Source: a virus | Direction: 5' to 3' (one strand) | Virus record (IMG/VR): IMGVR_UViG_3300027741_000040 | Location: 1 to 64,000 of that record | Length of the DNA: 64,000 bases | Translations under genes and position numbers: made by a program | Shown here: piece after piece, positions 2,998 through 31,234 of the stretch | Layout: the number at the start of each line of letters is the position of its first letter | Position numbering within the stretch: position 1 is the first letter of the stretch | Notes under the pieces: generated by a model | The model's database searches: none | What the model saw: the letters and a program-made list of their open reading frames with translations, nothing else | Told to the model about the DNA's origin: nothing

Positions 2998-3006
2998 ATT
3001 TATAAT

Positions 3007-3210: not shown

Positions 3211-3219
3211 GAGCTTATT

Positions 3220-3603
3220 ATGGCAGCTAGTCCAGTTTTCGCAGTAACACCAAGAATGGCGTCGGTTTCGATAGCAACAGCAGATGCTAGTTATACAGCA
3301 CCAAGTAGCGTTGGAACTTTAATAACAGGGGCTTCAACAGGAACTAGAGTAGCAGAAATTGTGGTAAAATGTGCTGCGACTAGTGCTGCTGCTATTGTTA
3401 GAATATTTTTATACGATGGTACTAATTATTGGTTATTTGACGAAGTCACCGTAGCTGCTGCAACAGGCTCTTCAACTGTTCAGCAAACTAGAGTAAGTAC
3501 CACATACAATAATTTGATTTTACCAAGTGCTTCATGGTCAGTAAGAGTGACTACGTCGGTTGCACAGGCTACTCACGTTACGGCTTTAGGAGCAGACTTA
3601 TAA
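3220..3603 (+). CDS. Small putative virion structural protein (127 aa)
   Basis: GGAG RBS; beta-rich; TAATG overlap with the next gene. Confidence 0.65.
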   Translation: MAASPVFAVTPRMASVSIATADASYTAPSSVGTLITGASTGTRVAEIVVKCAATSAAAIVRIFLYDGTNYWLFDEVTVAAATGSSTVQQTRVSTTYNNLILPSASWSVRVTTSVAQATHVTALGADL

Positions 3604-4879: not shown

Positions 4880-5395
4880 ATGAGCTGGAAAAAAGAAATT
4901 CCTATTATTGTACGAACTCTTATCAATGATTTATCAGAAATCCCCACATATTCTGACGAAAGATTACTACAAATCATATCAGTAGCGGCCAAATATGTTC
5001 AATTTGATGTTGTTTTAGATAATCCATATACTATAGATGTTGTTCGTCCAAATATTAGTCCAGATCCGACAGTTAATGATGATAGTATTTTTATTAGTCT
5101 GGTGTCATTAAAATCAGCTTGTATAGTCGATCAAAGTGTTTTGCGAACAAAGGCTGCTTTGGAAGGTATTAGGGCGGCACTTGGTCCAGCACAGCTTAGT
5201 GTTGGTGGTAGTTTAGCAGGATTGAAGATGATTATCGAAGAAGGTCCATGCGCAGCTTACGAAGAACTAACATCTCACTGGGATGTTCGAGAAGCAACTG
5301 CTATTCGCGCTATTCTTAGTCCGTTTGTTGGTAATCGTTTTGACCCAACAAGCCTAACATATCCTGGCGACCCAAGAAGAAATATGTTTTCATAA
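4880..5395 (+). CDS. Putative head-tail connector/adaptor protein
   Basis: 171 aa; N-terminal VRTLINDL...YSDERL resembles gp6/gp15-like adaptors; first gene of the neck block. Confidence 0.5.
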   Translation: MSWKKEIPIIVRTLINDLSEIPTYSDERLLQIISVAAKYVQFDVVLDNPYTIDVVRPNISPDPTVNDDSIFISLVSLKSACIVDQSVLRTKAALEGIRAALGPAQLSVGGSLAGLKMIIEEGPCAAYEELTSHWDVREATAIRAILSPFVGNRFDPTSLTYPGDPRRNMFS

Positions 5396-14363: not shown

Positions 14364-14648
14364 ATGACACAAATAGACAAGATCATAGCAGATATTGAAA
14401 CAAAATTTAAAACAACCATGATTGGTTCTTTGGCTAGGTTTGAAGAGTCTTTTGGACATCTATGGGAGGAAGAAGGCCCAGATCAACAAGAATATTTGGA
14501 CCTTTGGGAATATACCAGAAATTCAGTACTGAATAATGGTAATAAGCAAATGAGAGCGGCAGTTAATGATATATCCAATACTTTTTTAAACTCACCAAAA
14601 TCTAAAGTTACCTATAGATTTAATTACAGGAACGAAGGAGATCAATAA
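14364..14648 (+). CDS. Hypothetical protein (94 aa)
   Basis: Tightly packed ORF in the tail operon. Confidence 0.6.
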   Translation: MTQIDKIIADIETKFKTTMIGSLARFEESFGHLWEEEGPDQQEYLDLWEYTRNSVLNNGNKQMRAAVNDISNTFLNSPKSKVTYRFNYRNEGDQ

Positions 14649-14649
14649 T

Positions 14650-15546
14650 ATGAAGACTAAGACTTTTACCGGAGTGGTTGATGGCAAGGATAGAGAATTT
14701 CTAGTTAAGTCACCATCACTAAATGACCAAAGAGAAGCTCAAAAAGTTTATAATCAGGCTTTTACAGATGCTATTAAGAGCAAGAGTGTAGTAAGAGCCA
14801 AGCTAGATGATCTGCTACAAGATCAAGGACTATGGAACGATGAGAAACAGGCTAAGTTTACATCTTTACAAAGAGATCTTTTAGACGGAGAAAAGAGGCT
14901 TGCTAAGGGCGGATTTAGTTTGAATGAGGCCAAAGACCTTGCTATTAAAATGAAAGCCGTACGAGATGAAATCAGAGACCTTATCAGTGTTCGTACCTCT
15001 CTAGACAACCATAGCGCAGAAGGCCAAGCAGATAATGCTAGATTTAATTATTTAGTTAGTGTTTGTGTGGTGTATAATGATACTAAACAGCCATATTTTA
15101 GAGACATGGAAGACTACCTTAATAGGGCTGCTGAACCAGTTTCGTTATCGGGCGCTCAGAATTTGGCTAATATGTTATATGGTTTGGATAATGATTATGA
15201 AAAGGGTCTGCCAGAAAATAAATTTCTGAAAAAGTATAATTTTGTTGATGACAAACTAAGACTAATTGATAAAAAGGGCAGACTTATTGATAGTGACGGT
15301 AGACTTATTGATGATAGTGGCAGGTTTATTGACGAGGAAGGGAATTTTGTTGATAAGTACGGCAATAGAGTAAACTTAGAGGGTGATTATGTTGTTGATA
15401 CTAAACCATTTTTAGACGATAATGGAAACCCAATCCTGGACCAAGAAACTAATGATAAACCTTCTACAGACAACAAATCAGAAACTAGTGCAGAGCCAGT
15501 TGTGGCCGATGTTGCAAAAGCTGAAGTCCCTAGCGTTGTCTCATAG
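14650..15546 (+). CDS. Putative tail assembly chaperone with C-terminal 7-aa RLIDxxG repeats
   Basis: GAAGGAG RBS; immediately upstream of the TMP; paralog of 13332-14348. Confidence 0.55.
   Translation: MKTKTFTGVVDGKDREFLVKSPSLNDQREAQKVYNQAFTDAIKSKSVVRAKLDDLLQDQGLWNDEKQAKFTSLQRDLLDGEKRLAKGGFSLNEAKDLAIKMKAVRDEIRDLISVRTSLDNHSAEGQADNARFNYLVSVCVVYNDTKQPYFRDMEDYLNRAAEPVSLSGAQNLANMLYGLDNDYEKGLPENKFLKKYNFVDDKLRLIDKKGRLIDSDGRLIDDSGRFIDEEGNFVDKYGNRVNLEGDYVVDTKPFLDDNGNPILDQETNDKPSTDNKSETSAEPVVADVAKAEVPSVVS
15241..15435 (+). repeat. Coding 21-bp/7-aa tandem repeats (R/N-L/F-I/V-D-x-x-G)
   Basis: RLIDKKG RLIDSDG RLIDDSG RFIDEEG NFVDKYG NRVNLEG. Confidence 0.85.
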
Positions 15547-15637: not shown

Positions 15638-18600
15638 ATGACAGCAGCATTCAATTTAACAGCTCAATTGAATTTGAAAGGCCCAAGTAATATTGGGTCT
15701 ATAACATCGTCTATAAAAAAACAACTTGGTACAATTACTGCTAATGTTGACGTTAAGGTTAATGCTACCTCAATACAAAAAATTAGTCAGCTTAATGCTG
15801 GATTACAACAACTTAACAAGACATTATCGGCAACAACAGTTAGTGCAACATCTGCTGCCTCTGCTATTAAAGGATTAGGTCAGGCTTTTGGTGCTGTTAA
15901 TTTGAGTAGTTTGCCACAACAAATTTCAGCCACTTCAACAGCCCTAGGTCAAGTAAAGGGCCAGTCCGCTCAAGCTGCTAAAGCACTAGCTGCTTCAACT
16001 ACACAGATGGAAGAATTTGGCAAACAATCAGCATTAGCTGTTAGAAGATTTGCTGCTTTTAGTATTGTTACATCTAGTATTTATGCTTTAAATAATAGTA
16101 TAAATAGAGGTATAGAAGCTTTTATCGAATATGATCAGCAGTTTGTCAAACTGCAACAGGTTACAGGACAATCAGCAGATGGTCTAAAGTCCCTATCTAA
16201 AGAAATTACAACATTATCTGTAGGACTTGGTGTGAGTAGTGCTGCTTTAACAGATGTTGCTAGTACTTTAGCTCAGGCTGGTTTAAGTGCTCAAGACACA
16301 GAGAAAGCACTTAAAGCACTAGCCTTAAGTTCATTAGCTCCATCATTTGATAGTATGAATGAGACTGTAGAGGGCAGCATTGCAATAATGAGACAATTTG
16401 GTATTAGTGCTGGTGGTCTTGAAGGAGCATTAGGATCTATAAATACCGTTGCTGCTAAGTTTGCTGTTGAAGCTAGAGACATAATTACTGCTGTTCAGCG
16501 TACCGGTGGTGTGTTTGCTACGGCCAGTAAAGGAGTTACTGAAGGTACAGATGCTCTTAATGAATTTGTTGCTGTTTTTACAAGTATCAGAGCAACAACT
16601 CGTGAAAGCGCTGAAACTATTGCTACTGGTTTAAGAACAATTTTTACTAGAATTCAAAGAGGATCAACAATAGATGCCTTAAAGGAATTTGGAGTAAATC
16701 TACAAGATACTGAAGGAAAATTTGTTGGAGCCTATAAGGCCGTGGAACTATTAAGTAAAGGACTAAGTAGTCTCGATCCTAGAGATGCTAAGTTCTCAAA
16801 AATTGTAGAAGAGCTTGGCGGCTTCAGACAGATAGGTAAGGTTATTCCTCTTATTCAACAGTTTTCCGTTGCTCAAAATGCTTTAAAGGTCGCACAACAA
16901 GGACAAGGATCATTAGCAAAAGACGCAGCAACCGCACAACTGTCTTTAGCAAATCAAATTCAAAAAGTTAGACAAGAATTCTTGGCGCTATTTAGAGAGA
17001 TGGGACAAAGCCAAGGGTTTCAGGTTATGGTCAAAGCAACCTTATCATTAGCCAGTGGTCTTATTAAGGTTGTTAATGCTAGTAAGGGACTGCTTCCTCT
17101 TTTGGGCGTAATGTTAGCATTTAAGGGAGCTAGTGCCATAACTCAATTTGCTAGCGGTTTTGGCCAAGGACTAAAACCAGGAGCGGGCAAAAAAGACAGA
17201 GAAAAACCATTGTTCTCTCAAGGTGGTCCCGTAAGAGCCTTTGCTACCGGTGGCGTTGTACCAGGAAGCGGAGACGGAGACACTGTTCCCGCAATGTTAA
17301 CTCCTGGAGAATTTGTTATTAAAAAGCAAGCTGTTAAAGCTATTGGAGCTAATAAATTACATAGTATAAATAGATATGCTACTGGTGGTAAAGTTAAAGA
17401 TTTAGTTAATGATCCTAATGGTAAAAAATCTCTTAAAAAAGTCTATGATATAAATCAAGATTTTGATAGTTATGAAGATCCTACAATAGATAGAGTAGAC
17501 TTGGACAAAACATATGATCAGTATACACAACAATCTAAACAGATTTGGTTAGAAGCTAATAAAAAATACAAACAAGATTTAGCCGAAGGATACAAGCCCC
17601 AAAAAGGAGATATCCCCAAATTAGCAAATGCATATATAAAAAGAGAAACTGGTGGACTAGCTCAGAATCTTGGATTCAAAGAACTAAGAGAGCCTCAGAC
17701 AGCTAAAAAATTAAATAAAATTCGTGGAGCTTTAGCTGAAAATGAAGTTAAGAAAAGATATAAATTAGGAAATCCTCTCGCTTTACAAGATGGGGCTGAT
17801 TTTTATGATGCTAAAAATGAAAGATTCGTAGAAATCAAAAACCAGAAAAAACAATTAAAAGATTCTACTCTGATATCAAAAACATTACTAGCATTCGCTG
17901 CGAGAAAAGGTAACAAGTTAAATAATCAACCAGATCATGTTCCTAGTTTAAAAATTCTTGCTGTTGAAGCTCCAAGTCCAGATAAATACGATGAATTTGA
18001 AGAAAAAAAACTTGGTGGAGTAATTAATAAAAGAGCTGTGCGAGCTGTTGAATCTAAAACTTTTAAGAACATGAATCAATATGCTGGAGGTGGAGCAGTA
18101 GTAGTTAGAGATAGAGCAAACACAGATGACACCACAAAGCTAGATGAAGGTCTAGGCCAAATGGTGAATCAAGCATCTAGACAGTTTGGTAAAAAGGGAG
18201 CTCCTAAATTTATAAATGCCAAAGACATGCCAGGGTATCAAGCTATCAAAGGACATGTATTTGAAGAAGGATTGCGAATAGCTGGAGCATCGGCAGCAGA
18301 TAGTGCTGCTAATGCAGATTTTGATTATAATCCATGGTCTGGTAATAAGTCTTTTAGTAAACTTCCAGTATCAAAAACACCAATTGTAGACGCAAAAGCA
18401 TCTCTAGGTTCGGCCAGTAAAGCAGAGTTTATTAAAAAAATTAGTAATTTTAGACAGAAGAATCCAAACGATAATACCACAAATTTCGGCGCGGCAATAT
18501 TTGAAAATGAAAATGAAAAAGGAGGAGATCCAGAAGATATAAAGATTTCTGCAAAAGAAATAGCAGCATACGGCCAAAGTAAAAATAGTGGTGGTTTGAT

Positions 18601-21600
18601 CCAAAGATTTATTGATGGTGGCTGGGTTAAAAGAATGCAGCAGCAGTCACCAAAAGACCTTAACAAGGAACTGGATTTACTCGATTCTACATTAGACTTA
18701 TTTGGTTTTCAAAGAAAGGTTCCAATTAGCACATTTAGTAAATCGGCACCTTTTATGGAAGATGCGGGAATCAAAGAAGTTAGAGAAAGAATATCTGCCA
18801 TCAAAGAGTTTCTAGCTAGTAAAGAACCACAAAAAAAGAAAAAGACTGAGAAAGAAATAACTTTACCCAAAGCTCCATCTGGCATTTCTGATTATCTTAG
18901 GTCTTTAATTGAAAAAAATAAAATATATGATATAACAAACCAGTATGATGGTATTGTTAATCAAGCACTAAATGCAGCATATAAGGGAAATTTGGGACCA
19001 GGAAATAAACAACAGAATATGGATAAGGTTGGACCAAAAAGTATGGTTCGTTTCGCTCCGGACAGAGAATATATTGATGTATCTTTGGGTTCACTAGAAA
19101 AAGACATTCAATATATTGATAAAGTTAAAAAACTAAAGGGAGAAGATTCCGAAAGACTAGCTGCTAACAAAGGCTATACCGTTAGCGATATGTTAGATAC
19201 CGTTAGGGCATATCAGGCGATAGGTTTAGATGCAGCTATTAATACTGCTCTTGGCAGGAAAGATGACTTGAGTCAGTCATTAGCCGATACGTCAGATTTG
19301 AATAAAACAGAGAGGAAAAAGCTTGGTCCAGCAGTAGATCAGCCACTATCTTATTTTGTTGGATCATTAGATGCCGCCATGCAATTTTCATTACCAGAAA
19401 AATTATATAGTGGTATAGGAGCTAGTAAACAAAAACTATTTATAGAATCAGCTGGCGTAAAAATTAATAAACTAGAAGATACCAAAAAACTAGTTGGAAA
19501 AACTGTTAGCATACCTTCTTTCTTATCTACTTCAGAAGTACTAGATACAGCAGAAAGCTTTGTAAGAACAGGCATGATGACCATAGAAACAAATAAAAAA
19601 GCCAAAGGATTAAATCCAGAGAGAGCCAAGACAGATACGATTAACAGAGATAAATCAAAAATAAGAAAAATGGACCAGAGGCTCATTAGCGATTCTTTTG
19701 TCAAAGGCAAAGCCGATGAAAGTTTTGCTGACGATTATGATATCGAATCAGAATATATTCTACCAAGAAATTCTAAATTTAAAGTAAAAAACATAGAAGC
19801 TAAGGACAACAGTGAAGAAGGCGGAAATATTCTTGAATCGCTCAATATGGATTGGGCTGTAAAAATGTTAAATCGTGGAGGGAAAGTACAAAAATTTGTA
19901 GACGGTGGAGTAGCTCAACGAAAAGTTGGATATATTGATTATGATGTTATAGCTAATGAAACTAATAAAGATATTGTAGAAAAAGGCATGGAAGCAACTG
20001 GGCAAAAGGGTCCTAGACTATATACAGATTACCTAACGCAGCTTGCTGTTAGAGCACGAAAAGATAATAGTTTACAAAAACTAAGAGCAATATACGGAGT
20101 AGCTGGTAGTGGTAAAACAACACTAGCACGAGGTCAAGGAACAGACAATGCTACATTGCGCAAAACCGACAGATTTCCAGTACTATCTCCAGAAGATATT
20201 CAAAAAGCTACCGAAATATTAATACTAACTAGTAGCGTAAGTCAAACTAAAATGGATGATTTTTTTAGTGATGTTGATAGAGCATATACATTAAGTTCGA
20301 CTACTGACGCAGAAAGACAGGGAGTAAGGAGTAGAAAAGAATCAAGAGACATTACAGGTATTGGTTTAGAGAATCGCAAACCCGGAACTACTATGGGAGT
20401 TTCAACAGATAGTGCTGTTGGCGAAGCATTATTATCAGATAAGCTAGGATCAAAATCTACAGTATTAGGACGAAGTGATTCTGGCAGACTAAGAAGAAAG
20501 AGAGGAAATGAATTAGTAGACATTATCAAGAAGAGAATTGGTTTCACATGGGGTGGTTTTTCTCCCATGACAGCCGGTCATGAAAGCATCATGGAAGCAG
20601 CATCGGCTATGGGTATTCCTCCAGAAGATTTTATATATTTGGTTGGAGCAAATGAAGGAATTACTGATGATAAGGCATCAAGTTTCCGTACTGCAATTTT
20701 TGATCAGGATGCGAGAGTATTATTAGCTAAAGCTGGGGCTGGAGCAAAAGGAGCGACAGTATTACCAAAACCAAGAGACTTTGAAGTTCCACAAGCTTTT
20801 GATATTTCGCCGGAAAGTGGTCGTAGAAAAGTATTAATACCAGGAAAGGGTAGTACAGCATTTGTAGCAGATAAAACAGCAAAAGATTTAGAAAAATATA
20901 CATCTGCAGGATATAGCACAGTCAATTTGGAAAGATATGGCGGGATCAGCGGTACCATGGTTAGAGATTTAATAGCAGAAGGAAATCTTGGAGAATTACA
21001 GAAAATATTAAGCCCAGGAGTATATGATTTAATTTCTAATAATATTGGTAGGATCCAAAATAGAGCTAAAATTCTTCCAACAATAGTAGCAGATGTACAA
21101 AAAAGTCAGACTGTTAAACTCAAAGATGTAGAATCTGAAATTAAAGCAATTGGTATCAGTAGAATAGACCAAAAGAAAATGGACGATCCAGAATATGCAG
21201 CAAAAGCAGAAATATTATTGGATCTTAGAGAAAAGAAAAAGAAGATCCAAACTGCCGGATCTTTTGAACCATACAAATTATTAGATGCTTTAGCCCAAAA
21301 AGACCCTCAAAACTACGCCCTAGATTTCTCTTCACCAACAACTATGGCTAATGTTCCAGATATGAGAGTTATGGGACAAGGCCCACAAGCTCCTGAAGCT
21401 CCTATGCCAGTTGGTAGAGTTGCTCAATTAGCTCAAGAAAAAAATAAAAGTATTCAAGATGTTATACTAGAACAACTAGGAGGTTTGGGTGGTCCTGCTG
21501 GGGTTAAGAAAATACTTGGTATCGGTAGTGGAGATAGAACACTAAGCTCATTATTGCAAGCAGGAAATATTAAAGGTGGCAAAGGCTTAGAACAAGCAGC

Positions 21601-24600
21601 AGACTATGTTAATAGAGCATTAGCGGCTAGGGGAATAAGAGATGCTGCCGAAGCTAAAAGATTAGAAGAATATCAAGCTAAGGCTCTTCATTTTGGTATT
21701 GCCGGATTATTACCAATGGATTACTCAAAAGAATTTGAGTGGGATATTGGTGGTACTAGTGTTTACGCTACTGCTAGAGGTTTTGGTAGCGCATATTTGG
21801 AAGAAGCAAGACAAATGCAGAATGAGTCTTCAGCATTAGCTCAAAGATTTGCAGAAAATATACAAAATAAAAATATCTTTGGCGGTGGTGAAAGACTAGC
21901 TTTTGATTTCGATAAAACTTTAGTTGAGGATGCAGATATTCTCGATGCTAAGGGCAACCCTGATATTAAAAAATATGCAAATAGAGATGCTGTACAGCAG
22001 GCTCTCCAGAACGCAAGACCAACCAGACTAGCAGTTAAATTAAAATCTCTAATAGAACAAGATCCTCCATTTATTAAGAAAACCAGAATACTAACAGCTA
22101 GACCACAAAGCACAGCAGACCTTCTTGCTCAATCATTACAAAGTTTTGGTCTACCATATTCTGAACAAGATATTACAGGAGTTAGTGGTGGAGCTAGCAG
22201 CAATATTGCGGTATTAAAAGCTGCTAATTTACAACAAGAAGAAAAACTTATTGATGATAATTTAGAAAATATTATGGCTGTTCGCAAAGCTGGAAAAAAA
22301 GGTTTTCAGTACATAGAACCCAAGCCTACAACATCAGAATTAGATGAGAAAATGGGCCAGGGTAATATTGAGGGCGCCGTAGTAGAAAAAGCTTTGGCTG
22401 TATTAGGTGCTCCTGTAAGACCAAATGCTAAACAGAATAGAGCTATAGACTATCCTGATGGCTTAGGCAGTGCTGCCCAATTCTTTCCTGGTATTGATCC
22501 TGGTATTCCAACGGAAGTTAAAAGAACAATTGATGGTAGTAGTTTAGAAAAAGTTAGAGAAGAAATTGGAAGATATATAACAGGGGGAGCCGAAGCTGTT
22601 AAACTAGCTAGGGGAGGAGCTGTTCAAAGCTTTATGGCTGGTGGTAGGGCAGCTCCTCAGTCTCCGCCTAGAAAGTTTGCTGATGGCGGGTTAGTTCCAG
22701 GAATAGGTAATCAAGATACTGTTCCAGCAACTCTTAATGTTGGTGACTTTGTTATTAGAAAAAAAGCAGTAGAAACGATTGGGGTTTCTAAATTAGCAGG
22801 AATGTCAAGATATGCTAGTGGAGGTTCTGTAGATAAGGTTCCTGCTTTATTAACTCCTGGAGAGTTTGTTTTTAATAGACAGTCTGCACAGAAAATAGGA
22901 TATAATAAATTACATCAATTAAATCATGCTGATAAAATAGCGGGATATAATAATGGAGGAATGGTAGGAGGAGTTCAAGGATATGCTTCTGGAGGCGCTG
23001 TTACCATCAATAGCGCAATAGAAGATCTCATAACTTACCTTGCAAAAGGTATGAAGGCTACATCAGAAGCTAATCCTCCAAAACTAGTAGCTAGACCAGA
23101 TATTGTTGGTCGAGCAACTTTACAAGTTTCTGATAAAACAGTAGAGGTCATTAAAGCAATTAGTAAAGAACTTAACGATCTTGGTGTTAGTGTAAGTCAT
23201 GTTGCAGAATTAATGAAGATTGGTGGGGATATCAGCTATAAAGCCATGGAAAAGGCTATTAAAAAAGATATTGAAAGAATGACAATCGCTGGTGCCTCTA
23301 TCGAACAGCTTAGTAAAGCAGAAAGTACATTAGCAGTAGTTAGAACAGAAAGAATAGAAAATCTCAAGAAAACTCAAACATTAGAAGATAGTTTTAGAAA
23401 TTCTAGTATTGGTCAAAAATTTGGTTCGGGAGGAGCACAACAACAGATAATATCAGAATCTGACAGATTAGAAAAACTGATTGAAAATAAAAAGATAAAA
23501 GATATATCAAAAACATTAAATACTGGTCCTGGTGGTATGCTAGGAGCATCTTCGGAGGATATTAGAAAGAAAGCTACAGAGCTAGCGTCATCTCCGGAAG
23601 AGAAGGCTAAAACTAAACAATCGGCATATATTACGGCCGCAGCAAAAGTAACAGGAGTTAAAGTGTCTGATTTTAAATCTGCTGAGTTATCAGGAGCAGA
23701 TATTCAGAAATATATTGCTGAATCCATGAGAGATCGAAAAACTTTGGCAGATATGGACAAACAACTTATTGCTTTAAGAATGGAGGAATATAAGAACGTC
23801 AGTACTGTTAGAGGAATTTCTGTAAATTCAGCAAAAGAAGCAAGAGCACTAGCCGATGAAGAAGTGTCACAAAGAAGAGGAATTATTGATGACTTAGCTA
23901 GCGCCCAAGGAGAAGAGGGTGTCGGACCATCAGGAATCTGGGATTTGGCGAATAGCGTGATTGTTAAAAAACTACAAGGACTTACTCCGAGCGATTATAT
24001 TAATGGAGGAGCAACTATTGCTGGTTTTATGAGTGGCAATGGAAATGCTATTGCTCAAAATTTCTATGATACCAGCGATCAAGGAAGAATAGGAGCAGCT
24101 AGAACAGGAGCCGCTATTTCTAGCGCCGGAACAATTGCTAGCACAGGCTTAGGAATAGCTGCTCAAAGTTTGGCTCTTGGTCCTATTGGTCCTGTTGTTG
24201 CTGGTATTGTGGCTGCTGGAACTGGTATTCTTGCTTTAACCGATAGTATTTATGATTTTACCGGATCACAAGAAGCTGCTGTTAAAGAAGTAGAGAAGTC
24301 TCTTAGAGCAACTGAAATTAATGCAGCAACCGCTAGTTTAGATGATGCTTTTAAGAAATTTGAAAATGATATGAGTAATATTGATCTTCAAGAAGCTCTT
24401 AATAATGCATTATCTAATTCTGTAATGGCTCAGGCCAAAGATACTAGTGCTAATATTGATCAAGCAAAAGAAGACTATGCTTATCAAAATAGAAGTTGGG
24501 GAGACCTATTAAACTTTGATTTAGGTGGCAGCGCTCAGATGGATGCTGTTGAATTAAAAGAAGTTAATAGGGTAGAAGCAGAACGTTTTGCTCCTTTGGC

Positions 24601-27600
24601 AGATAAGGCGTATAAACAAATTCAAAACGAAATTAATGGCAATGCTTCTATAGAACAAATTATGAGCAATGACAAATTGCGTGGCGCTAGAGCAGCTATT
24701 GCGATGAGTACACCTGAGGGTATTTCAGAATATACGGCACAAAAAGCAGCAGAAGAGAAAGCCACCGGAAAACCAATTACTGAAGACGCACGCCAAGCAA
24801 TAATTGATGAAATAGCTGCTCGAAAAATTTCTACTAATGAATTTATCATATCATCAATCAAGGCTAAAGAAGTTGCTGATGCATTAGAGATGGCAAATTT
24901 GGCAGGACGAAAATTGGCACAAAGTTTTCAGAGACTATATGACAGTATTGATCAGGCTATTAATAAAAATAATTTTAATATTCAACAGAGAAAGACAAGT
25001 ACTGATTATTCTACTGGTGCCCTATCGGGAAATGCAGTTACTCCAGAACTTAATTCAAAAAATATTAATATACTAGATAATCCAAAAGCATATTCTACAA
25101 AAGAATTTAATAGTGCTATTAATGTTGCTTCTCAGTCATTACCAGCAGAAGACGCAGCAATGATAAAAGGTGCTGCTACATTACAAAGAAATTTAGCACC
25201 AGCCATAGAAGCAGAACTTAGAAAAACTTTGAGAACAGACGCTGGACTAACAGCAGAAGACGCAGCAAAACAAGCAAAAGAAATAGGAACAGCACAGGTT
25301 AAAGCCAAAGGTCTCCCTGTAGAAATGGAAGAAGCTATAATTAATCAACTTAATGCTTCTATAGATGCTAAAGTACAAGACGATAAGGTACAAAATGAAT
25401 TCAAAAACAGCCCTCAAGCTGCCACAGACAAATTTATTGAGAGTATTAGAGAAGCATCAGATACTATTATCGAAAATGCTGGTAAGGGAGGTATTGATAC
25501 ACTTAAGAAGTTGCTATCTTCTAGACAAGATATTTTTAATGATTTTGGGAAGAATTTAGCCAAATCCTCCGCTTTCCTTAAGCAGCATGCAGAATCTCTT
25601 GTTAAAGCTAAAAATATTATTGGTGATGCTAAGATGAATCTTAGAGAAGCATTAACTGGTGTTGGTGAGACTTTTGCTGAAGCTAAAGCCCGTTTTGATT
25701 CGGAAATATCTGATCTTACTGGGGGAATAACTGATCCTAAAGCGATCCGCGCAAATATACAAAATCTAGAGAAAAAAGGGGCAGCTCTTGTAGAACAAAG
25801 AAAGAATACTGATGATGAAGCTGCTATTGCAAAATTTACCACAGAAATTAATAAAACTAATGATGCTATTAACAATAATAGAGAAGGACTAGAAAGATTA
25901 GCTAATAGTTCTGAATTGGCAGCAAAAGCACTAGGTGAAGTTACTAAGATTAGAGATCTACAAAAAAATAGATCCGAAGTAGTTAACAAATTATTAACAC
26001 AAACTCCAGAAGAAGCCCAAAAGCTCAATGACACGTTTGTTAGACTGCAGAATAATTTAAGTGGAGGATTAAATACAGGAGCTAATTCTAGAGCGGCCAG
26101 AGAAGCTTTTAGTCAGGCTTTGCGAAGTGGAAGTTCATTACAAGGAGCATATCGAGCAGGAAATAGTGTTCTTGCACAACAGAGGCAAGAAACATTAGCA
26201 ATGTTCCAAGATCCCAATATTAGGGGTGCTCAAAAACTAGAGATGAAAAATCAGGCTATTCGACAAAACAAAACCTTATCAGACGAGCAGATAGAGGATA
26301 TATTAAATCAGCAAGAAGCCCAGCTAAAAACACAAATGGCCATAGAAACAGGACAAATCAATAATCCTATGGTTAGGGCAGATATTGAAGCAACCAAAAA
26401 TAGAAAATTTGATCCAGCCGCTGCACAAGCTGCTGACGAATATAATAAAATCACTAACAGACAGGCTAATGCTAATACTGAAATTGGAGGACTAGCATTA
26501 GTACAAAGTAGGCTAGTTAAATCTAACGATGAACTGAAAATAGCACTAGAGGGATTGACGTTAGAGATTCAAAATGCCAGAGGATTTGATGCCAAGGTAG
26601 AGGGCGGGAAAATGGGCGCTGCCGCTGCCGTAGCTGCCGGAAAAGGAGCTACTGTTGGAGCATCTCCTGCCGGAGGAAATGGTCCAAGGACCGTATACGC
26701 TAGCACGGGAGCTTTAATTAATTTTGAGCCAAAAGGAACAGATACTGTTCCTGCAATGTTGACTCCTGGCGAATTTGTTATTAATGCTAGATCAACAGCT
26801 GAACATCTTCCATTATTACAGGCTATTAATAATAGCAGGGGTGGGAGTATTGATGGATTTTCTAATGGTGGAATAGTTTATGCCCAAAAAGGGATACTGG
26901 TGCCAACGAAGAGAGAAACATCCCTTTCTGCTGATTATACCAGACTGTCTCGGGTTCAGCAGGGCAATATTACCGTGCGAGGAGATGAGTTAACAAGAGG
27001 ATCATATCGCGCTACCCTCGACCCTAGCGTTGTTATTCATCGAGCCATCAGTCCTGTTGGCGCTCCGGGGTATGATGGCAGTTCGTCTTCTGATGCTGTG
27101 CGCAATCCGGGCACTCCGTCGAGAACACAGGCGAAGGAACAAGCAAAAGCGAAGGACGCTGGTTACAATGCTATGGCTGAACGAATTCGTGCGGCACGTT
27201 CAACCGGCATAGGAGATGCTCCTAAAGTGTCATCGCTCGCACAACAAATGATGTATCTCCCAAACGGCAAGGTTAGACCTGTCCCAAGCAGAGAGATGCT
27301 TGACAAGTGGTCAGACATCGACGCACAGGCTGGCAGGAAGCGGCAGGACGGTGGTCATATTGCCGTACCGCCAGCTACACAGCCAGCGCCAGCCAAAGAT
27401 GCTGCTCAAACTCGACAAGCAGCACCCAACTCAAACAAAACTATGCAAAAGCCCATTCAGTGGGGTGGGTTTGGTTTCGGTTCTACACCGACGCCTGCTC
27501 CTGTCGGCGGTGAGTCACAGGTAGACAAGGCTATTAAACTGTTGCGGGCATTGAATCTGGGTGGAGACGCAAGTAAAAAAGAGTCTCAGGCTACAGACGA

Positions 27601-30600
27601 AGGTCAAAGAGAGCCAAAAACTAAGACCTCAGGATCAAAAGTAAAAAAATCTGAACAAACCTTCTTTGGTGGCACTCCATCGCAGATGGCTTCTCCTAAA
27701 TTTTCATTACCTTGGTTGTCTGCTGGTTCTAATTTTCCAAAACCGCGTAATATGGCTGAAATACAAATGTACAAAGAAGGCTTGTCTCGTGGTATGACAA
27801 TCCAACAGGTAAGAGACGAAAGAATACAAGCTTATAGATCAAGATTTCCATCAAGGAAAAATAATAGACAAACACAGAACTCTCAGGCTCCTTTTGGTAA
27901 TCTTAGTATATTTGGTTTTTCTGGTCTCTCCACCCTAAGTGGAGGAGAAGCAACATCAAAACCCAGCTATGACACTACTAGAACCAATAGTCCTCTTCTT
28001 CGTCCTCCAAAAGAACAAGCTAAAGTAATAAAAGAAGAAGCTAAACAGGCTCAAGAGCCATTAGCAGCAGCGCCCTCATTACCAGTAGCAGCAGCGCCCT
28101 CATTACCAGTAGCAGCAGCGCCCTCATTACCAGTAGCAGCAGCGCCCTCATTACCAGTAGCAGCAGCGCCCTCATTACCAGTAGCAGCTGGTTTAGACAG
28201 AGAAAAACAAAGAAATTTAGATCTAGCATATGAAAATATGGCCGAAAGAAGTAGGGCAAAGATTTTAGAGACCATAGGCCAAGAAGGAGCTTGGGATGTT
28301 AATGCTTATGATACTGCCTACCGCAGATTAATGAGATCTGGAACACCAACAAAAGAAAGATGGACGACAGAACAATTTAGACAAGCGGTTGAAAAAGAAT
28401 TATCTGGAATGTCTCCGGAATATGCTCGTAGACAATGGAAAGGAGTTACCCCATCTACCCACTATACTCAAAGTCCAGAATATAAGGCTAAACAGGAAAA
28501 AAAAGCCAAAGACAGAGAAGTTAAAGGACCATATGCTCCTGGATTACCTGGAGCAATAGACAAAGCTGCCGACCAGGTAATGACTGGAGTTGTATTACCT
28601 ATTACCGAAACTGTCGCTGGAGCTGCTACTGTTCTTAGATCTGGTAGTGGACCAGAGATGGACAAAAAATTAAAAGAAAACAGAGAAGCCTTAGGTGCTG
28701 ATGCTAGATTAGCTGAAGACGAAAAGAGAAAATTAATAGGAACAGATAAGAGTATTTTTGGAGGTAATGTTGGAGACAAGGTCTATTCTAAATTTTTACA
28801 GTTGCCTATTGGACAACAACAAGAATACCTAGATCTGAGAAAACGCGCTCAAACTAAAAAAGGACTTAGACAATCTGAAGCAGCTGATCTTAAAGAATAT
28901 ACTAGATTAGACTATTTTCAAAAAACTTTGGAAGTTCCATATCAGCAAAGAGAAAGAATTCCAACAGGTTATGAGTCTGACGTTAAAGACCCTGCGGCAA
29001 GCAAAAAATCATCCGATAAAATGACAGATATGAGAGATCTTCGTGCTGCTACTCCTTTATTAGGTAGTCGTAAGTATGTGGAAGGATTGCCAGCAGCTTT
29101 TGAAGAAGGAGCAACACTAGGAACAGTTTTGACTAAAGAATCTAGTGCTTATGGAGACAGAGCAACAGAAACAGTTGGTGGAACAGGACAAGTTGTTACC
29201 GGAACAGCCAAAGTAGGCTTTGGTTTAAGTGCGGCTGCATTAGCAGATAGAGTTGGTATGACCGGACTAGCATCTCCTAAGATAGTAAAAGCCTTGAAGG
29301 ATTCTTTTCTCGAAACAGCCAGATTAGGAGGTACTCAGGTTCAGTTAGGGGCATCAAAATATGGCAAAAATGCAGGTGTAGATTCAGCTTTAGCTATGGT
29401 TTATGGAGAAAGCTCTCCTCAAGCAACTTTTTATGCTGATCAACAAAAAGTTCAACAAAAACAATTTGATACTACTTTCCAAAAACAAAAAGCACAAGCC
29501 GAAGCTTTAGCTCCTGGATTCGGAACAAGCTACGAACGAGCAGAGAACTTATCTCAAGCAGCATATGGCGCAGCGACCACAGCGGCCATGCAACAGGTTG
29601 CTGTTGGGGCATTTACAAAACCTTCTATGTCTCCAGCAAAAACATTCACTCCAGCAGAAAATGCGGCTCGCTCCGGAACCAATCAAAAATTAAATGATGT
29701 ATTTACTGGAAAAAAACAGATAGTTCGCCCGTCGATAGATATAGAGCCAGAATTTAATAAGTTTTTAAAACGCCCAATTGTTGGAGAGCTCCCACCTCCA
29801 CAAGATATGGCACTAGATAGATTTTTAAAGCGCCCAATTATTGGAGAGCGTCCCTCTATTTCAAGTCCAGAACTAGATCAATTTTTGGGACGTACTGCAC
29901 AAACACCAGTAAATCCACAACTTCAAAACATACGATGGGCCATGCCGCGCAAGCCGGGATCGGCGGTATGGAACCAGCCATCCAAACCATCATCATGGAA
30001 TGGAGCTTCGCAGCCGTCACCAGGTCCTGTTACGAAACAATTGGAAAGGCTCCCACGAGTTCGGGCTGTCAAGAACTATACGAATAAGTATGGAAACCCA
30101 TCTGAAGATTCTGATTTAGTTATACGAAAACAATTAGACATATCACGACGTCAGAATGTCAGAAGGTTTATGAATGGGGAAAATGATGTTGGAGCTCCTA
30201 TTGATTCAACTCCTAGCGTTTCTTCAACAGGCACTACATTCCCTTCTGCTTCTCCAGCAGTATTCCCAAGGCCACAGATAGCAACACCTAGTGAGCCATT
30301 GTTTCCAACCCTTACAAAATGGGGTCGATCACTTAAAAGTTTAGCTGGTGGTATATGGAATATATCGACACCAGGGAATATTTTCTATACGGGTGGTAGC
30401 AGTGCTTCCCTTAGATATTTATTATCTGGAGGAGGTGAGCAGCAGGATAAACCACAGACAAAGAAAGTAAAGAGACCACAAAGAAAAGCAAATGTAGGTA
30501 TGATATCTACTGGATATACTGCTGAAGGAAAACTAGTCCCTTTATCCTTTGGTCCTACAGCTAAATATTCCACAGGAGGGATAGTATATGCAAATAACGG

Positions 30601-31234
30601 AGCACTAATAGAGACCCGTTCACAAGGAACAGACACCGTTCCCGCCATGTTAACTCCTGGTGAATTCGTTGTGAACAGAGCATCCGCACAAGAACATATG
30701 CCATTACTACAAGCTATTAATAATAGAAATTATGAAAGCGGCGGGTTAGTAAAGTATATGGCTCAGGGAGGTGTTGTTACTCCTCAATATAAGGATGTAG
30801 GAGGAGCTATCGGCAGCTTAGCATCCTCAAGTATTTTGGGTGCTGGACTAGACATGGGAGCGATTAGCGAACTAGCAAAAGAATTACCAAGACTCAAACA
30901 AGCATTTGGGTCATTTGAGAAATTATCAGAATTTACACAAAGTTTTGATAAACTTACACAAAATATGGGTACTAATTTAACCGGATTTGCGGAAACAGTA
31001 GCCAATATGCCAAGACAGATGGAGCACTCTCTAAAAGCTATTGTTAATGGCACTATTAATAGCAATATTCCTGGTGCTACCACTCAAATAGTTAATAGTA
31101 GACATGAGGCTCAAATAGTTTATGACCAAAATAATCAAAGACTAGACAGAGCCAGCGAAGGGGCTTTTTCACGATCAGATCCAGCAATCATGAGAGGAAC
31201 AAGTGGTGCCGGAGGCACTCGTTCTAATGCATAA
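15638..31234 (+). CDS. Giant tape measure protein (5198 aa) with embedded enzymatic cargo domains
   Basis: N-terminal TP901-type TMP core (FIEYDQQFVKLQQVTG...LAQAGLS...ETIATGLRTIFTRI...EELGGFRQ), long helical A/E/K-rich regions, and hydrophobic segments near 17030-17165 and 24090-24245. AGGA RBS; canonical position after the chaperone-like genes. Confidence 0.9.
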   Translation: MTAAFNLTAQLNLKGPSNIGSITSSIKKQLGTITANVDVKVNATSIQKISQLNAGLQQLNKTLSATTVSATSAASAIKGLGQAFGAVNLSSLPQQISATSTALGQVKGQSAQAAKALAASTTQMEEFGKQSALAVRRFAAFSIVTSSIYALNNSINRGIEAFIEYDQQFVKLQQVTGQSADGLKSLSKEITTLSVGLGVSSAALTDVASTLAQAGLSAQDTEKALKALALSSLAPSFDSMNETVEGSIAIMRQFGISAGGLEGALGSINTVAAKFAVEARDIITAVQRTGGVFATASKGVTEGTDALNEFVAVFTSIRATTRESAETIATGLRTIFTRIQRGSTIDALKEFGVNLQDTEGKFVGAYKAVELLSKGLSSLDPRDAKFSKIVEELGGFRQIGKVIPLIQQFSVAQNALKVAQQGQGSLAKDAATAQLSLANQIQKVRQEFLALFREMGQSQGFQVMVKATLSLASGLIKVVNASKGLLPLLGVMLAFKGASAITQFASGFGQGLKPGAGKKDREKPLFSQGGPVRAFATGGVVPGSGDGDTVPAMLTPGEFVIKKQAVKAIGANKLHSINRYATGGKVKDLVNDPNGKKSLKKVYDINQDFDSYEDPTIDRVDLDKTYDQYTQQSKQIWLEANKKYKQDLAEGYKPQKGDIPKLANAYIKRETGGLAQNLGFKELREPQTAKKLNKIRGALAENEVKKRYKLGNPLALQDGADFYDAKNERFVEIKNQKKQLKDSTLISKTLLAFAARKGNKLNNQPDHVPSLKILAVEAPSPDKYDEFEEKKLGGVINKRAVRAVESKTFKNMNQYAGGGAVVVRDRANTDDTTKLDEGLGQMVNQASRQFGKKGAPKFINAKDMPGYQAIKGHVFEEGLRIAGASAADSAANADFDYNPWSGNKSFSKLPVSKTPIVDAKASLGSASKAEFIKKISNFRQKNPNDNTTNFGAAIFENENEKGGDPEDIKISAKEIAAYGQSKNSGGLIQRFIDGGWVKRMQQQSPKDLNKELDLLDSTLDLFGFQRKVPISTFSKSAPFMEDAGIKEVRERISAIKEFLASKEPQKKKKTEKEITLPKAPSGISDYLRSLIEKNKIYDITNQYDGIVNQALNAAYKGNLGPGNKQQNMDKVGPKSMVRFAPDREYIDVSLGSLEKDIQYIDKVKKLKGEDSERLAANKGYTVSDMLDTVRAYQAIGLDAAINTALGRKDDLSQSLADTSDLNKTERKKLGPAVDQPLSYFVGSLDAAMQFSLPEKLYSGIGASKQKLFIESAGVKINKLEDTKKLVGKTVSIPSFLSTSEVLDTAESFVRTGMMTIETNKKAKGLNPERAKTDTINRDKSKIRKMDQRLISDSFVKGKADESFADDYDIESEYILPRNSKFKVKNIEAKDNSEEGGNILESLNMDWAVKMLNRGGKVQKFVDGGVAQRKVGYIDYDVIANETNKDIVEKGMEATGQKGPRLYTDYLTQLAVRARKDNSLQKLRAIYGVAGSGKTTLARGQGTDNATLRKTDRFPVLSPEDIQKATEILILTSSVSQTKMDDFFSDVDRAYTLSSTTDAERQGVRSRKESRDITGIGLENRKPGTTMGVSTDSAVGEALLSDKLGSKSTVLGRSDSGRLRRKRGNELVDIIKKRIGFTWGGFSPMTAGHESIMEAASAMGIPPEDFIYLVGANEGITDDKASSFRTAIFDQDARVLLAKAGAGAKGATVLPKPRDFEVPQAFDISPESGRRKVLIPGKGSTAFVADKTAKDLEKYTSAGYSTVNLERYGGISGTMVRDLIAEGNLGELQKILSPGVYDLISNNIGRIQNRAKILPTIVADVQKSQTVKLKDVESEIKAIGISRIDQKKMDDPEYAAKAEILLDLREKKKKIQTAGSFEPYKLLDALAQKDPQNYALDFSSPTTMANVPDMRVMGQGPQAPEAPMPVGRVAQLAQEKNKSIQDVILEQLGGLGGPAGVKKILGIGSGDRTLSSLLQAGNIKGGKGLEQAADYVNRALAARGIRDAAEAKRLEEYQAKALHFGIAGLLPMDYSKEFEWDIGGTSVYATARGFGSAYLEEARQMQNESSALAQRFAENIQNKNIFGGGERLAFDFDKTLVEDADILDAKGNPDIKKYANRDAVQQALQNARPTRLAVKLKSLIEQDPPFIKKTRILTARPQSTADLLAQSLQSFGLPYSEQDITGVSGGASSNIAVLKAANLQQEEKLIDDNLENIMAVRKAGKKGFQYIEPKPTTSELDEKMGQGNIEGAVVEKALAVLGAPVRPNAKQNRAIDYPDGLGSAAQFFPGIDPGIPTEVKRTIDGSSLEKVREEIGRYITGGAEAVKLARGGAVQSFMAGGRAAPQSPPRKFADGGLVPGIGNQDTVPATLNVGDFVIRKKAVETIGVSKLAGMSRYASGGSVDKVPALLTPGEFVFNRQSAQKIGYNKLHQLNHADKIAGYNNGGMVGGVQGYASGGAVTINSAIEDLITYLAKGMKATSEANPPKLVARPDIVGRATLQVSDKTVEVIKAISKELNDLGVSVSHVAELMKIGGDISYKAMEKAIKKDIERMTIAGASIEQLSKAESTLAVVRTERIENLKKTQTLEDSFRNSSIGQKFGSGGAQQQIISESDRLEKLIENKKIKDISKTLNTGPGGMLGASSEDIRKKATELASSPEEKAKTKQSAYITAAAKVTGVKVSDFKSAELSGADIQKYIAESMRDRKTLADMDKQLIALRMEEYKNVSTVRGISVNSAKEARALADEEVSQRRGIIDDLASAQGEEGVGPSGIWDLANSVIVKKLQGLTPSDYINGGATIAGFMSGNGNAIAQNFYDTSDQGRIGAARTGAAISSAGTIASTGLGIAAQSLALGPIGPVVAGIVAAGTGILALTDSIYDFTGSQEAAVKEVEKSLRATEINAATASLDDAFKKFENDMSNIDLQEALNNALSNSVMAQAKDTSANIDQAKEDYAYQNRSWGDLLNFDLGGSAQMDAVELKEVNRVEAERFAPLADKAYKQIQNEINGNASIEQIMSNDKLRGARAAIAMSTPEGISEYTAQKAAEEKATGKPITEDARQAIIDEIAARKISTNEFIISSIKAKEVADALEMANLAGRKLAQSFQRLYDSIDQAINKNNFNIQQRKTSTDYSTGALSGNAVTPELNSKNINILDNPKAYSTKEFNSAINVASQSLPAEDAAMIKGAATLQRNLAPAIEAELRKTLRTDAGLTAEDAAKQAKEIGTAQVKAKGLPVEMEEAIINQLNASIDAKVQDDKVQNEFKNSPQAATDKFIESIREASDTIIENAGKGGIDTLKKLLSSRQDIFNDFGKNLAKSSAFLKQHAESLVKAKNIIGDAKMNLREALTGVGETFAEAKARFDSEISDLTGGITDPKAIRANIQNLEKKGAALVEQRKNTDDEAAIAKFTTEINKTNDAINNNREGLERLANSSELAAKALGEVTKIRDLQKNRSEVVNKLLTQTPEEAQKLNDTFVRLQNNLSGGLNTGANSRAAREAFSQALRSGSSLQGAYRAGNSVLAQQRQETLAMFQDPNIRGAQKLEMKNQAIRQNKTLSDEQIEDILNQQEAQLKTQMAIETGQINNPMVRADIEATKNRKFDPAAAQAADEYNKITNRQANANTEIGGLALVQSRLVKSNDELKIALEGLTLEIQNARGFDAKVEGGKMGAAAAVAAGKGATVGASPAGGNGPRTVYASTGALINFEPKGTDTVPAMLTPGEFVINARSTAEHLPLLQAINNSRGGSIDGFSNGGIVYAQKGILVPTKRETSLSADYTRLSRVQQGNITVRGDELTRGSYRATLDPSVVIHRAISPVGAPGYDGSSSSDAVRNPGTPSRTQAKEQAKAKDAGYNAMAERIRAARSTGIGDAPKVSSLAQQMMYLPNGKVRPVPSREMLDKWSDIDAQAGRKRQDGGHIAVPPATQPAPAKDAAQTRQAAPNSNKTMQKPIQWGGFGFGSTPTPAPVGGESQVDKAIKLLRALNLGGDASKKESQATDEGQREPKTKTSGSKVKKSEQTFFGGTPSQMASPKFSLPWLSAGSNFPKPRNMAEIQMYKEGLSRGMTIQQVRDERIQAYRSRFPSRKNNRQTQNSQAPFGNLSIFGFSGLSTLSGGEATSKPSYDTTRTNSPLLRPPKEQAKVIKEEAKQAQEPLAAAPSLPVAAAPSLPVAAAPSLPVAAAPSLPVAAAPSLPVAAGLDREKQRNLDLAYENMAERSRAKILETIGQEGAWDVNAYDTAYRRLMRSGTPTKERWTTEQFRQAVEKELSGMSPEYARRQWKGVTPSTHYTQSPEYKAKQEKKAKDREVKGPYAPGLPGAIDKAADQVMTGVVLPITETVAGAATVLRSGSGPEMDKKLKENREALGADARLAEDEKRKLIGTDKSIFGGNVGDKVYSKFLQLPIGQQQEYLDLRKRAQTKKGLRQSEAADLKEYTRLDYFQKTLEVPYQQRERIPTGYESDVKDPAASKKSSDKMTDMRDLRAATPLLGSRKYVEGLPAAFEEGATLGTVLTKESSAYGDRATETVGGTGQVVTGTAKVGFGLSAAALADRVGMTGLASPKIVKALKDSFLETARLGGTQVQLGASKYGKNAGVDSALAMVYGESSPQATFYADQQKVQQKQFDTTFQKQKAQAEALAPGFGTSYERAENLSQAAYGAATTAAMQQVAVGAFTKPSMSPAKTFTPAENAARSGTNQKLNDVFTGKKQIVRPSIDIEPEFNKFLKRPIVGELPPPQDMALDRFLKRPIIGERPSISSPELDQFLGRTAQTPVNPQLQNIRWAMPRKPGSAVWNQPSKPSSWNGASQPSPGPVTKQLERLPRVRAVKNYTNKYGNPSEDSDLVIRKQLDISRRQNVRRFMNGENDVGAPIDSTPSVSSTGTTFPSASPAVFPRPQIATPSEPLFPTLTKWGRSLKSLAGGIWNISTPGNIFYTGGSSASLRYLLSGGGEQQDKPQTKKVKRPQRKANVGMISTGYTAEGKLVPLSFGPTAKYSTGGIVYANNGALIETRSQGTDTVPAMLTPGEFVVNRASAQEHMPLLQAINNRNYESGGLVKYMAQGGVVTPQYKDVGGAIGSLASSSILGAGLDMGAISELAKELPRLKQAFGSFEKLSEFTQSFDKLTQNMGTNLTGFAETVANMPRQMEHSLKAIVNGTINSNIPGATTQIVNSRHEAQIVYDQNNQRLDRASEGAFSRSDPAIMRGTSGAGGTRSNA
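17396..18004 (+). other. TMP domain: PD-(D/E)xK nuclease-like domain 1
   Basis: GALAENEV...DGADFYD...FVEIKN fits the E...D...ExK restriction-endonuclease-fold pattern. Confidence 0.55.
18095..18580 (+). other. TMP domain: PD-(D/E)xK nuclease-like domain 2
   Basis: KGHVFEEGL...ADFDY...IVDAKAS. Confidence 0.55.
19190..19860 (+). other. TMP domain: VIP2/Alt-like mono-ADP-ribosyltransferase
   Basis: VRAYQ...AINTAL, LYSG (normally LYRG), SFLSTS and ESEYILPRNSKFKV (ExE motif). Confidence 0.8.
20070..20500 (+). other. TMP domain: P-loop NTPase/kinase-like
   Basis: Walker A motif AIYGVAGSGKTTLAR at about 20087-20130. Confidence 0.7.
20530..21060 (+). other. TMP domain: HIGH-superfamily nucleotidyltransferase (CTP_transf_like; NadD/CoaD-type)
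   Basis: IGFTWGGFSPMTAGH (T/HxGH motif) and C-terminal ISGTMVRDLI...LSPGVYDLI (ISxTxxR motif). Confidence 0.8.
21890..22315 (+). other. TMP domain: HAD-superfamily phosphatase
   Basis: Motif I LAFDFDKTL, motif II ILTAR, motif III K, motif IV LIDDN. Confidence 0.8.
22350..22600 (+). other. TMP domain: PD-(D/E)xK nuclease-like domain 3
   Basis: IEGAVVEKAL...AIDYP...PTEVKRT. Confidence 0.5.
28062..28188 (+). repeat. Perfect 24-bp coding tandem repeat, about 5.3 copies (AAAPSLPV)
   Basis: GCAGCAGCGCCCTCATTACCAGTA repeated 5 times identically from 28064. Confidence 0.95.
29746..29895 (+). repeat. Degenerate 60-bp coding repeat, about 2.5 copies (FLKRPIxGE)
   Basis: EFNKFLKRPIVGELP / ALDRFLKRPIIGERP / ELDQFLGR at a 20-aa period. 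Confidence 0.8.

Follow-up and report, generated by a model that had tools for sequence, protein, structure and literature searches.

Diglycine motifs of a giant phage tape measure protein form the edges of a repeated module at the boundaries of its cargo

The virus contig IMGVR_UViG_3300027741_000040 from IMG/VR encodes a giant tape measure protein (TMP) whose chain is punctuated by repeated Gly-Gly (GG) pairs, which raises the question of what these diglycine motifs do in a protein of this kind. The DNA analysed here, referred to as the window, comprises the first 64 kb of this linear 95.8-kb contig, for which CheckV estimates a completeness of 66%. The TMP open reading frame (ORF) extends from position 15638 to 31234 on the plus strand, as do all features described below, and its translation yields a protein of 5198 amino acids (aa) and about 560 kDa without a single cysteine. 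By its matches to PF10145 (aa 189-393; E = 2e-21; 77 bits vs. a cut-off of 33.2) and TIGR01760 (aa 149-459; 97 bits vs. a cut-off of 28.8) the product is identified as a TMP of the TP901 type. A first-pass annotation, made from the sequence, had interpreted the motifs as maturation cleavage sites releasing individual effectors, as conserved homology anchors for cassette exchange, or as both. Our analysis points to the motifs being the two flanks of a conserved TMP joint module or, where they occur within the cargo, what is left of truncated copies; the module would be subject to specific recognition, and we consider this explanation probable, if only narrowly so.

Translation of the ORF and enumeration of every GG places all 19 xxGG sites of the first-pass annotation at the nucleotides given there, i.e. 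at 17213, 17240, 17375, 18005, 18080, 18581, 18608, 19868, 19895, 22604, 22631, 22676, 22811, 22946, 22982, 26858, 30566, 30731 and 30758. The 9-aa spacing of the doublets is likewise real, but their number has to be corrected from five to six, as NSRGG at 26831 had been overlooked and pairs with FSNGG at 26858; the GG pairs are located at aa 529/538, 985/994, 1414/1423, 2326/2335, 3735/3744 and 5035/5044. Compared to 2000 shuffles of the TMP sequence, the motifs are strongly enriched, with 64 GG (39 expected), 20 [FY]xxGG (2.1 expected), 16 [FYWLM]xxGGx[VI] (0.65 expected) and six GGx7GG (0.29 expected), none of these counts being reached by any shuffle. Moreover, 15 of the 20 [FY]xxGG sites fall into the junction zones, which make up only 490 of the 5198 residues. 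In its strict form the motif occurs 16 times in the TMP ORF vs. three times in the 72 other ORFs of the contig.

Self-comparison and alignments reveal that the xxGG motifs constitute the two edges of a repeated module of 65-90 aa. Hereby, [FY]AxGG-x-V is followed by a Gly/Pro turn region, a core (DTVPAMLTPGEFV, a nearly invariant DTVPAxLTPGEFV), a short helix ending in L..[IM]N and a second [FY]AxGG, and this second flank is often repeated as a 9-aa unit of the form GG-x-[VI]-[QR]-x-[FY]-A-x. The same order, with a core that can be written as PAxhxxGEFV, was found for the window modules in two alignments, while a motif scan of the 72 other contig ORFs retrieved neither a doublet nor a module core. 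Five full copies are present, all of them detected by self-BLAST and with a hidden Markov model (HMM). M1 (aa 511-590; 17168-17407), additionally supported by alignment, consists of the doublet FSQGG/FATGG, the core, the helix and YATGG. M2 (aa 2332-2398) and M3 (aa 2398-2458) are arranged in tandem within a region carrying six xxGG motifs (aa 2313-2458; 22574-23011). M4 (aa 3672-3755; 26651-26902) ends in the doublet NSRGG/FSNGG and is 59% identical to M5 (aa 4960-5058; 30515-30811), which is composed of YSTGG, the core and the doublet YESGG/MAQGG. Apart from these full copies, a truncated module at aa 790-825 (18005-18112) retains KKLGG, the helix and YAGGG without the DTVPA core; self-BLAST pairs aa 560-586 with aa 795-821, and a weak HMM match covers profile positions 33-67. 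Two further doublets from the GG listing, KNSGGLIQRFIDGG (aa 982-997; 18581-18628) and LNRGGKVQKFVDGG (aa 1411-1426; 19868-19915), stand alone. Aligned with the module, the KKLGG...YAGGG pair and both stand-alone doublets cover its C-terminal half; these three elements show the helix end and the GG flank, lack the core and are, as judged from the alignment, module remnants.

In scans of the TMP no Pfam or NCBIfam model covers the module, and several PHROG TMP profiles match modules near their C-termini, as part of whole TMPs. An AF2 monomer model of a single module, computed from a 42-row alignment, has a pLDDT of 58.7 and consists mostly of coil, GG flanks included, with one helix (residues 44-60) and no sheet. 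Because this model is of low confidence and shows a helix only, the isolated module probably does not fold by itself. The module sequence is also part of the cryo-EM entries of lambda (8iyk) and Douge (8zdo), but is unmodelled in both. A local match of the core to Atg8/LC3 in the PDB (E = 1.1) was taken as chance.

To place the motifs relative to the mosaic structure of the gene, we compared 15 orthologous loci and 243 giant relatives, the latter with up to 7.9 thousand aa (kaa) and up to 11 modules. The closest relative, P0152, is 93% identical in the N-terminal domain and shares aa 1-585, 2346-3758 and 4977-5198 with the window TMP, the sequence in between being lost or distant. All four resulting breakpoints lie at [FY]xxGG motifs, namely right after YATGGK, right before KFADGG (aa 2346), about 10 aa past FSNGG and right before YSTGG. 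In the orthologous locus L003, a cassette of 2.7 kb with 78.6% DNA identity starts at the second unit of the aa 985/994 doublet, at both the protein and the DNA level. At the aa 1414/1423 doublet, the DNA identity to L003, calculated over 50-aa intervals, drops from 0.86-0.97 before to 0.69-0.77 after the doublet, the interval containing the doublet itself reaching 0.93. The kinase-NTase block shared with L007 starts at the aa 1411-1426 doublet in both proteins; block ends in the comparison with L010 likewise lie at doublets, and two blocks occur there in swapped order. The order of cassettes differs between L010 and L007. Evaluated over 14 non-redundant sequences, 25.6% of the internal homology endpoints lie no more than 5 aa from a motif, vs. 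3.4% for random placement and 7.5% as the maximum of 500 trials. That cassette boundaries in orthologs follow the motifs, as expected, is thus borne out for P0152, L003, L007 and L010, and at the protein level the alignments support both the assignment of the motifs to cargo boundaries and the exchange of cassettes between them. An apparently split TMP in L006 (L006:14695-14950; ORFs of 1565 aa and >776 aa) results from two frameshifts within about 300 nt, none of them at a motif, and probably represents an assembly error or a pseudogene.

The module is by no means restricted to this contig. A profile built from 42 copies and searched against 1.84 billion representatives (clusters at 50% identity; E<=1e-3) matches 31,787 clusters; the top 150 consist without exception of giant proteins (2.1-7.9 kaa) in which the module occurs 4-11 times. 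At least 899 clusters comprise TMPs of 2.9-9.1 kaa with the N-terminal domain of the window TMP. The module is also found in ordinary TMPs of many Gordonia, Rhodococcus, Burkholderia and Corynebacterium phages, e.g. with three copies in gp17 of Gordonia phage BatStarr, where a Pfam scan identified no domain between the modules, and with two copies in gp16 of mycobacteriophage Douge; a cyanomyophage protein adjoining baseplate hub genes contains it as well. Even a profile derived from the window copies alone matches lambda gpH at aa 731-784 (21 bits), by which the two modules are identified as homologous. Within the 243 giant relatives (1.13 M residues), the GG-GG spacing peaks at 9 aa (881 vs. 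54 in shuffled sequences) and at 8 aa (511 vs. 52), with a doublet consensus of [YF][NAS]xGGx[VI][QR]x[FLY]AxGGx[VA]. The number of motifs correlates with protein length (r = 0.83), the segments between motif zones show modes at 200-300 aa and 1000-1500 aa, and a median of 135 aa separates the end of the last module from the C-terminus. No diglycine motif of TMPs turned up as already described in searches of the literature.

In the proteins compared, the module is seen at every seam between ruler backbone and variable inserts as well as between cargo cassettes, save some cassette seams, and module number is seen to rise with the amount of cargo. The motif would be a short linear element which is recognised in an extended, glycine-hinged state rather than a passive linker, with other TMP chains, a tail-assembly partner or a protease as possible recognisers. 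The module could serve as a standard joint, between copies of which cassettes may be inserted or exchanged while the backbone is left undisturbed. Survival of only those recombinants that keep an intact joint would account for the accumulation of mosaic breakpoints at the motifs. The joints might be cut, but the data can be explained without cutting. Several points weigh against this interpretation. The word joint describes where the motif is located, whereas the mechanism is unproven and no partner that binds it is known. Conservation of [FY]Ax-GG-x[VI] across phages of unrelated hosts would be superfluous in a passive linker, so that the specific recognition itself is left unexplained, and the interpretation offers no account of the core, in which D, P, A, L, G, E, F and V hardly vary. 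Furthermore, aa 1907-2019 and 2225/2226 are block boundaries in L007 and L010 that lack a canonical motif.

The coincidence of mosaic boundaries with motifs could alternatively arise at the DNA level, if the motifs were homology anchors, i.e. short crossover points at which cassettes are shuffled between phages. This corresponds to the linker model of modular phage evolution, in which short conserved sequences act as recombination points between phages. Apart from the boundaries as such, the drop in DNA identity to L003 at the aa 1414/1423 doublet, the different cassette order of L010 and L007 and a 32-nt identical run at D-G-G codons, with which the L003 cassette opens, are all in line with such anchors. 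However, this run is not the longest one, as runs of 77, 50 and 45 nt occur elsewhere in the L003 alignment, and close relatives can swap entire inserts by way of the long homologous backbone flanking them. The module copies within the gene are only 61-78% identical at the DNA level, 25-67% of the codons differ at identical residues, and the doublets are encoded with different Gly codons and have no extended identical run in common. This variation of Gly codons and DNA between copies implies that selection acts on the peptide; judged by these comparisons, the motif is conserved at the protein and not at the DNA level, and the motifs offer little for homologous recombination to act on. Retention of the motif in about 31,800 clusters of unrelated phages likewise argues for selection on the protein. 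Of the anchor claim made in the first-pass annotation, the breakpoints at the motifs therefore stand, while anchoring at the DNA level is weak, and we regard DNA anchors as improbable. A protein-level alternative that would require no partner, in line with the conservation across unrelated phages, is an inter-chain repeat structure of the 9-aa GG units, e.g. a short triple beta-helix or an RTX-like beta-roll, which would clamp three or six TMP chains in register on both sides of each non-coiled-coil insert. The strict 9-aa (and 8-aa) period, the GG turns, the alternating hydrophobic residues, the arrays of two to three units and the AF2 monomer that does not fold would all suit a clamp. Yet two to three units per array are few, and the RTX consensus GGxGxDxUx is not matched, position 4 being V/I with no Asp. 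In addition, symmetrised tail-tip maps of lambda show no order in the part of gpHC that contains the module, gpH residues of about 690-817 being unresolved in them (PMC12617516). We regard a clamp as very improbable.

More serious, although still doubtful in our view, is the possibility that cleavage takes place at the motifs, during maturation or after ejection, with a protease or the module itself cutting at or next to [FY]xxGG and freeing a C-terminal piece, as with lambda gpHC, or perhaps each effector cassette. Cleavage of the lambda TMP has been on record since 1974; gpH is cut during tail maturation in a Gly-rich stretch adjoining the module, site and enzyme being unknown (PMC12617516), and the 14-kDa C-fragment would start near aa 715-721, i.e. 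10-15 aa before the FATGG of the module. T5 pb2 is cut after R1127 (FVPR↓AEGGMMYPG), three residues before GG, which yields pb2* and pb2C (PMC10038345). The top local match of the module profile on the pb2 C-terminus is RAEGGMM, right at this cut; this match is, however, insignificant (hhalign Prob 0.3%) and missed by the HMM, so that we rejected homology of pb2 to the module and note a resemblance only. The T5 cut also precedes the GG. Lambda, T5 and the window TMP share the order of hydrophobic stretch, Gly-rich region or module, and C-terminal part. In the window TMP this hydrophobic stretch (GLLPLLGVMLAFKGASAITQFA; about aa 478-500; 17069-17137), as read from the translation, forms the end of the N-terminal domain directly before M1, and throughout the giant family the stretch between the last module and the C-terminus stays at about 135 aa. 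Furthermore, 94 of the 243 giant relatives (39%) carry HExxH, with 140 motifs vs. about one expected by chance. The contexts of these motifs recur (HEMTHQLFQ, HETFHDIQG; e.g. P0028 aa 1392, P0040 aa 1309/1482, P0013 aa 1564/2552), and the respective segments, with weak Pfam similarity to M78, DUF6782 and ATLF, look like embedded zincin-like peptidase cassettes, which would fit the processing by embedded zincin-like peptidases proposed for polyvalent proteins (Iyer et al. 2017, PMC5512222). Against cleavage, direct evidence exists for no member of the giant TMP family, and 149 of the 243 relatives keep the motifs without HExxH. The search of the rest of the genome for a candidate protease, suggested by the first-pass annotation, came back empty: models of JAB, C39, NlpC/P60, S78, adenain C5, Ulp1 C48 and ClpP (PF14464, PF03412, PF00877, PF04586, PF00770, PF02902 and PF00574, respectively) had no match in the 95.8-kb, 66%-complete contig, PF00770 and PF02902 not even at E<=1, nor did a peptidase turn up when 20 ORFs in the neighbourhood of the TMP (window 1017-48778) were scanned with Pfam. 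The window TMP itself contains neither Cys nor HExxH, the latter being absent from all 73 contig ORFs. Conservation flanks the GG on both sides, in tandem 9-aa units; two sites 9 aa apart would serve no obvious purpose, and in many orthologs a conserved Pro directly follows the first GG of M1 (GGPVR). Taken as sequence features, the two-sided conservation, the tandem units and the Pro resemble a structural element that is recognised more than they do a plain scissile site. That the last module is cut, as in lambda, seems about as probable as that it is not, whereas for the release of every effector by cutting we see perhaps one chance in four. In its most far-reaching form, which we put forward as speculative and rather unlikely, the [FY]AxGG module would be a general TMP processing element, triggered by assembly or ejection, that underlies the cut of lambda gpH to H* and is multiplied in giant TMPs, where it would cut the ruler into Cys-free effectors (nucleases, ART, kinase/NTase and others) entering the host before the DNA.

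The remainder of the protein divides into conserved backbone and variable inserts, the latter totalling about 3000 aa between modules. The N-terminal TP901-type domain (aa 1-510; 15638-17167) is 42-93% identical across the 15 loci, P0152 and P0116. Variable insert 1 (aa 586-2345; 17393-22672), delimited by comparison with relatives, holds the enzyme cargo cassettes; its counterparts in P0152, P0116, P0100, P0153 and P0154 show at best a distant similarity, despite N-terminal domains that are 77-93% identical. It is followed by the conserved TMP body (aa 2459-3671; 23012-26650), which is 78% identical to P0152 and 34% identical to L007 over about 1400 aa. Variable insert 2 (aa 3759-4976; 26912-30565) is of low complexity, shows little or no similarity to close relatives and contains, at 28058-28212 of the window, five tandem 24-nt units (98-100% identical) encoding AAAPSLPV repeats. 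The C-terminal 140 aa after the last module (30812-31231) are again 90% identical to P0152. M4 ends in GGIVYAQKG and M5 starts with GGIVYANNG. Owing to this likeness, it looks as if insert 2 had been placed inside a tandem module pair, and recombination between both motifs would cut the insert out cleanly.

As to the cargo itself, the first-pass annotation had divided it into two nucleases, an ART and a kinase-NTase-HAD-nuclease block. The motifs do lie at the cassette boundaries, but the domain names are weakly checked, the ART, NTase, HAD and REase-like matches all being weak; ADP-ribosyltransferase model ADPrib_exo_Tox, for instance, scores 22.8 bits, below its cut-off of 23.4. For nuclease segment 1 the Protein Atlas gave a weak match to Tox-REase-7 (0.87), which is a lead only, and for nuclease segment 2 it gave no match. 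The window TMP has 16 His and no Cys in its 5198 residues, compared to about 1-2% Cys in the other contig ORFs, and its giant relatives contain 40 Cys in 1.128 M residues, with 220 of the 243 lacking Cys altogether. That the chain is Cys-free including its enzyme-like cargo suggests that the whole of it is selected for unfolded passage or storage, or for an oxidising compartment.

Within a phage collection the closest TMP matches are only 22-28% identical, and none of them stems from a close cultured relative. The relative P0009 is labelled 'MAG: phage tail tape measure protein [Sphingobacteriia bacterium]', which hints at Bacteroidota hosts for the giant TMP family, and related contigs reach up to 247 kb. 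Downstream of the TMP, positions 31292-63014 encode four giant proteins of 1817, 1729, 2233 and 2528 aa. A Pfam scan of the 1817- and 1729-aa proteins detected fn3, FGE-sulfatase, RCC1, Laminin_G_3, DUF285 and PKD, and lectin domains are also among the Pfam matches in the ORFs around the TMP, so that the giant downstream proteins look, by their domains, like an elaborate fibre/adhesin set. Family scans of the ORFs upstream of the TMP, where putative chaperones would be encoded at 14364-15546, gave no match.

In terms of its significance, a module present in about 31,800 clusters is matched by no Pfam or NCBIfam model in the scans run, and it organises a very large uncultured family in which the ruler protein appears to be used as a carrier of exchangeable Cys-free enzyme cargo. 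As it abuts the cleaved Gly-rich region of lambda, it also represents a concrete, mutable candidate element for the gpH cut. If the joints are cut, the giant TMPs would amount to an effector polyprotein system of the tail lumen; if they are not, the joints would mark where foreign domains fit into a TMP, which would be useful for phage engineering and annotation.

Several known systems employ glycine pairs. Adenain- and African swine fever virus (ASFV)-type sites conform to (M/I/L)xGG↓x and occur in several structural proteins; C39 double-glycine leaders are N-terminal leaders ending in GG that go along with a C39 peptidase domain; and for the lambda gpI/gpK system a ubiquitin-like (Ubl) domain with a C-terminal GG and a JAB peptidase has been proposed. 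Adenain, ASFV pS273R, C39 and Ubl/JAB share with the window motif a hydrophobic residue before Gly-Gly. Compared to adenain and ASFV sites, however, the window motif has its aromatic residue at P5 instead of P4, a conserved V/I at P2' and one substrate protein, so that the parallel to adenovirus and ASFV polyproteins drawn by the first-pass annotation fails on site geometry, on the single motif-bearing protein and on the lack of a C5/C48 protease in the 66%-complete contig. C39 leader peptides were rejected, as the window motifs are internal and repeated and PF03412 has no contig match, and so was Ubl/JAB, as AF2 predicts one helix and no beta-grasp and neither PF14464 nor PF00877 matches the contig. 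RTX proteins build their beta-roll from long tandem arrays of the nonapeptide GGxGxDxUx, a consensus from which the window doublet, GGx[VI][QR]x[FY]Ax in 2-3 units per array, departs.

Closest to the window TMP is lambda gpH, which over aa ~705-787 shows a GG run (705-721), FATGG (F733-G737), PAGIVHRGEFVF, the helix and GYATGG, is detected by the window-only profile, and likewise has a hydrophobic stretch upstream (aa 691-712), its module near the C-terminus and a cut in that region. It differs in having one module and no cargo, whereas in the window TMP five modules and three remnants bracket inserts of about 3000 aa; as a precedent lambda gpH is better than the polyproteins named by the first-pass annotation, yet it supplies no mechanism. 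In T5 pb2, too, the cut separates a hydrophobic stretch from an enzymatic C-terminal domain and lies three residues ahead of a GG, but pb2 has a single site, its cut precedes the GG and it bears no significant similarity to the module. Polyvalent proteins of phages and conjugative elements (PMC5512222) are multi-effector polypeptides that are delivered with the DNA and undergo extensive domain shuffling, a character which the window TMP may share. They differ in that no TMP base and no conserved GG joint are described for them, and the window TMP lacks a peptidase motif, HExxH of an embedded zincin-like MPTase not being found in it; of the effector domains typical of polyvalent proteins, the window has the weak matches noted above, and delivery would follow from the TMP context. 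In mycobacteriophage TM4 motif 3, SPbeta YomI and T5 pb2C, finally, enzyme domains are likewise placed inside a ruler protein, and the actinophage proteins Douge gp16 and BatStarr gp17 carry the window module itself in two to three copies. TMPs of the TM4, YomI and pb2C type contain one or two cell-wall hydrolase inserts each, whereas the window TMP is far larger and carries many enzyme-like cassettes that would be directed to the cytoplasm.

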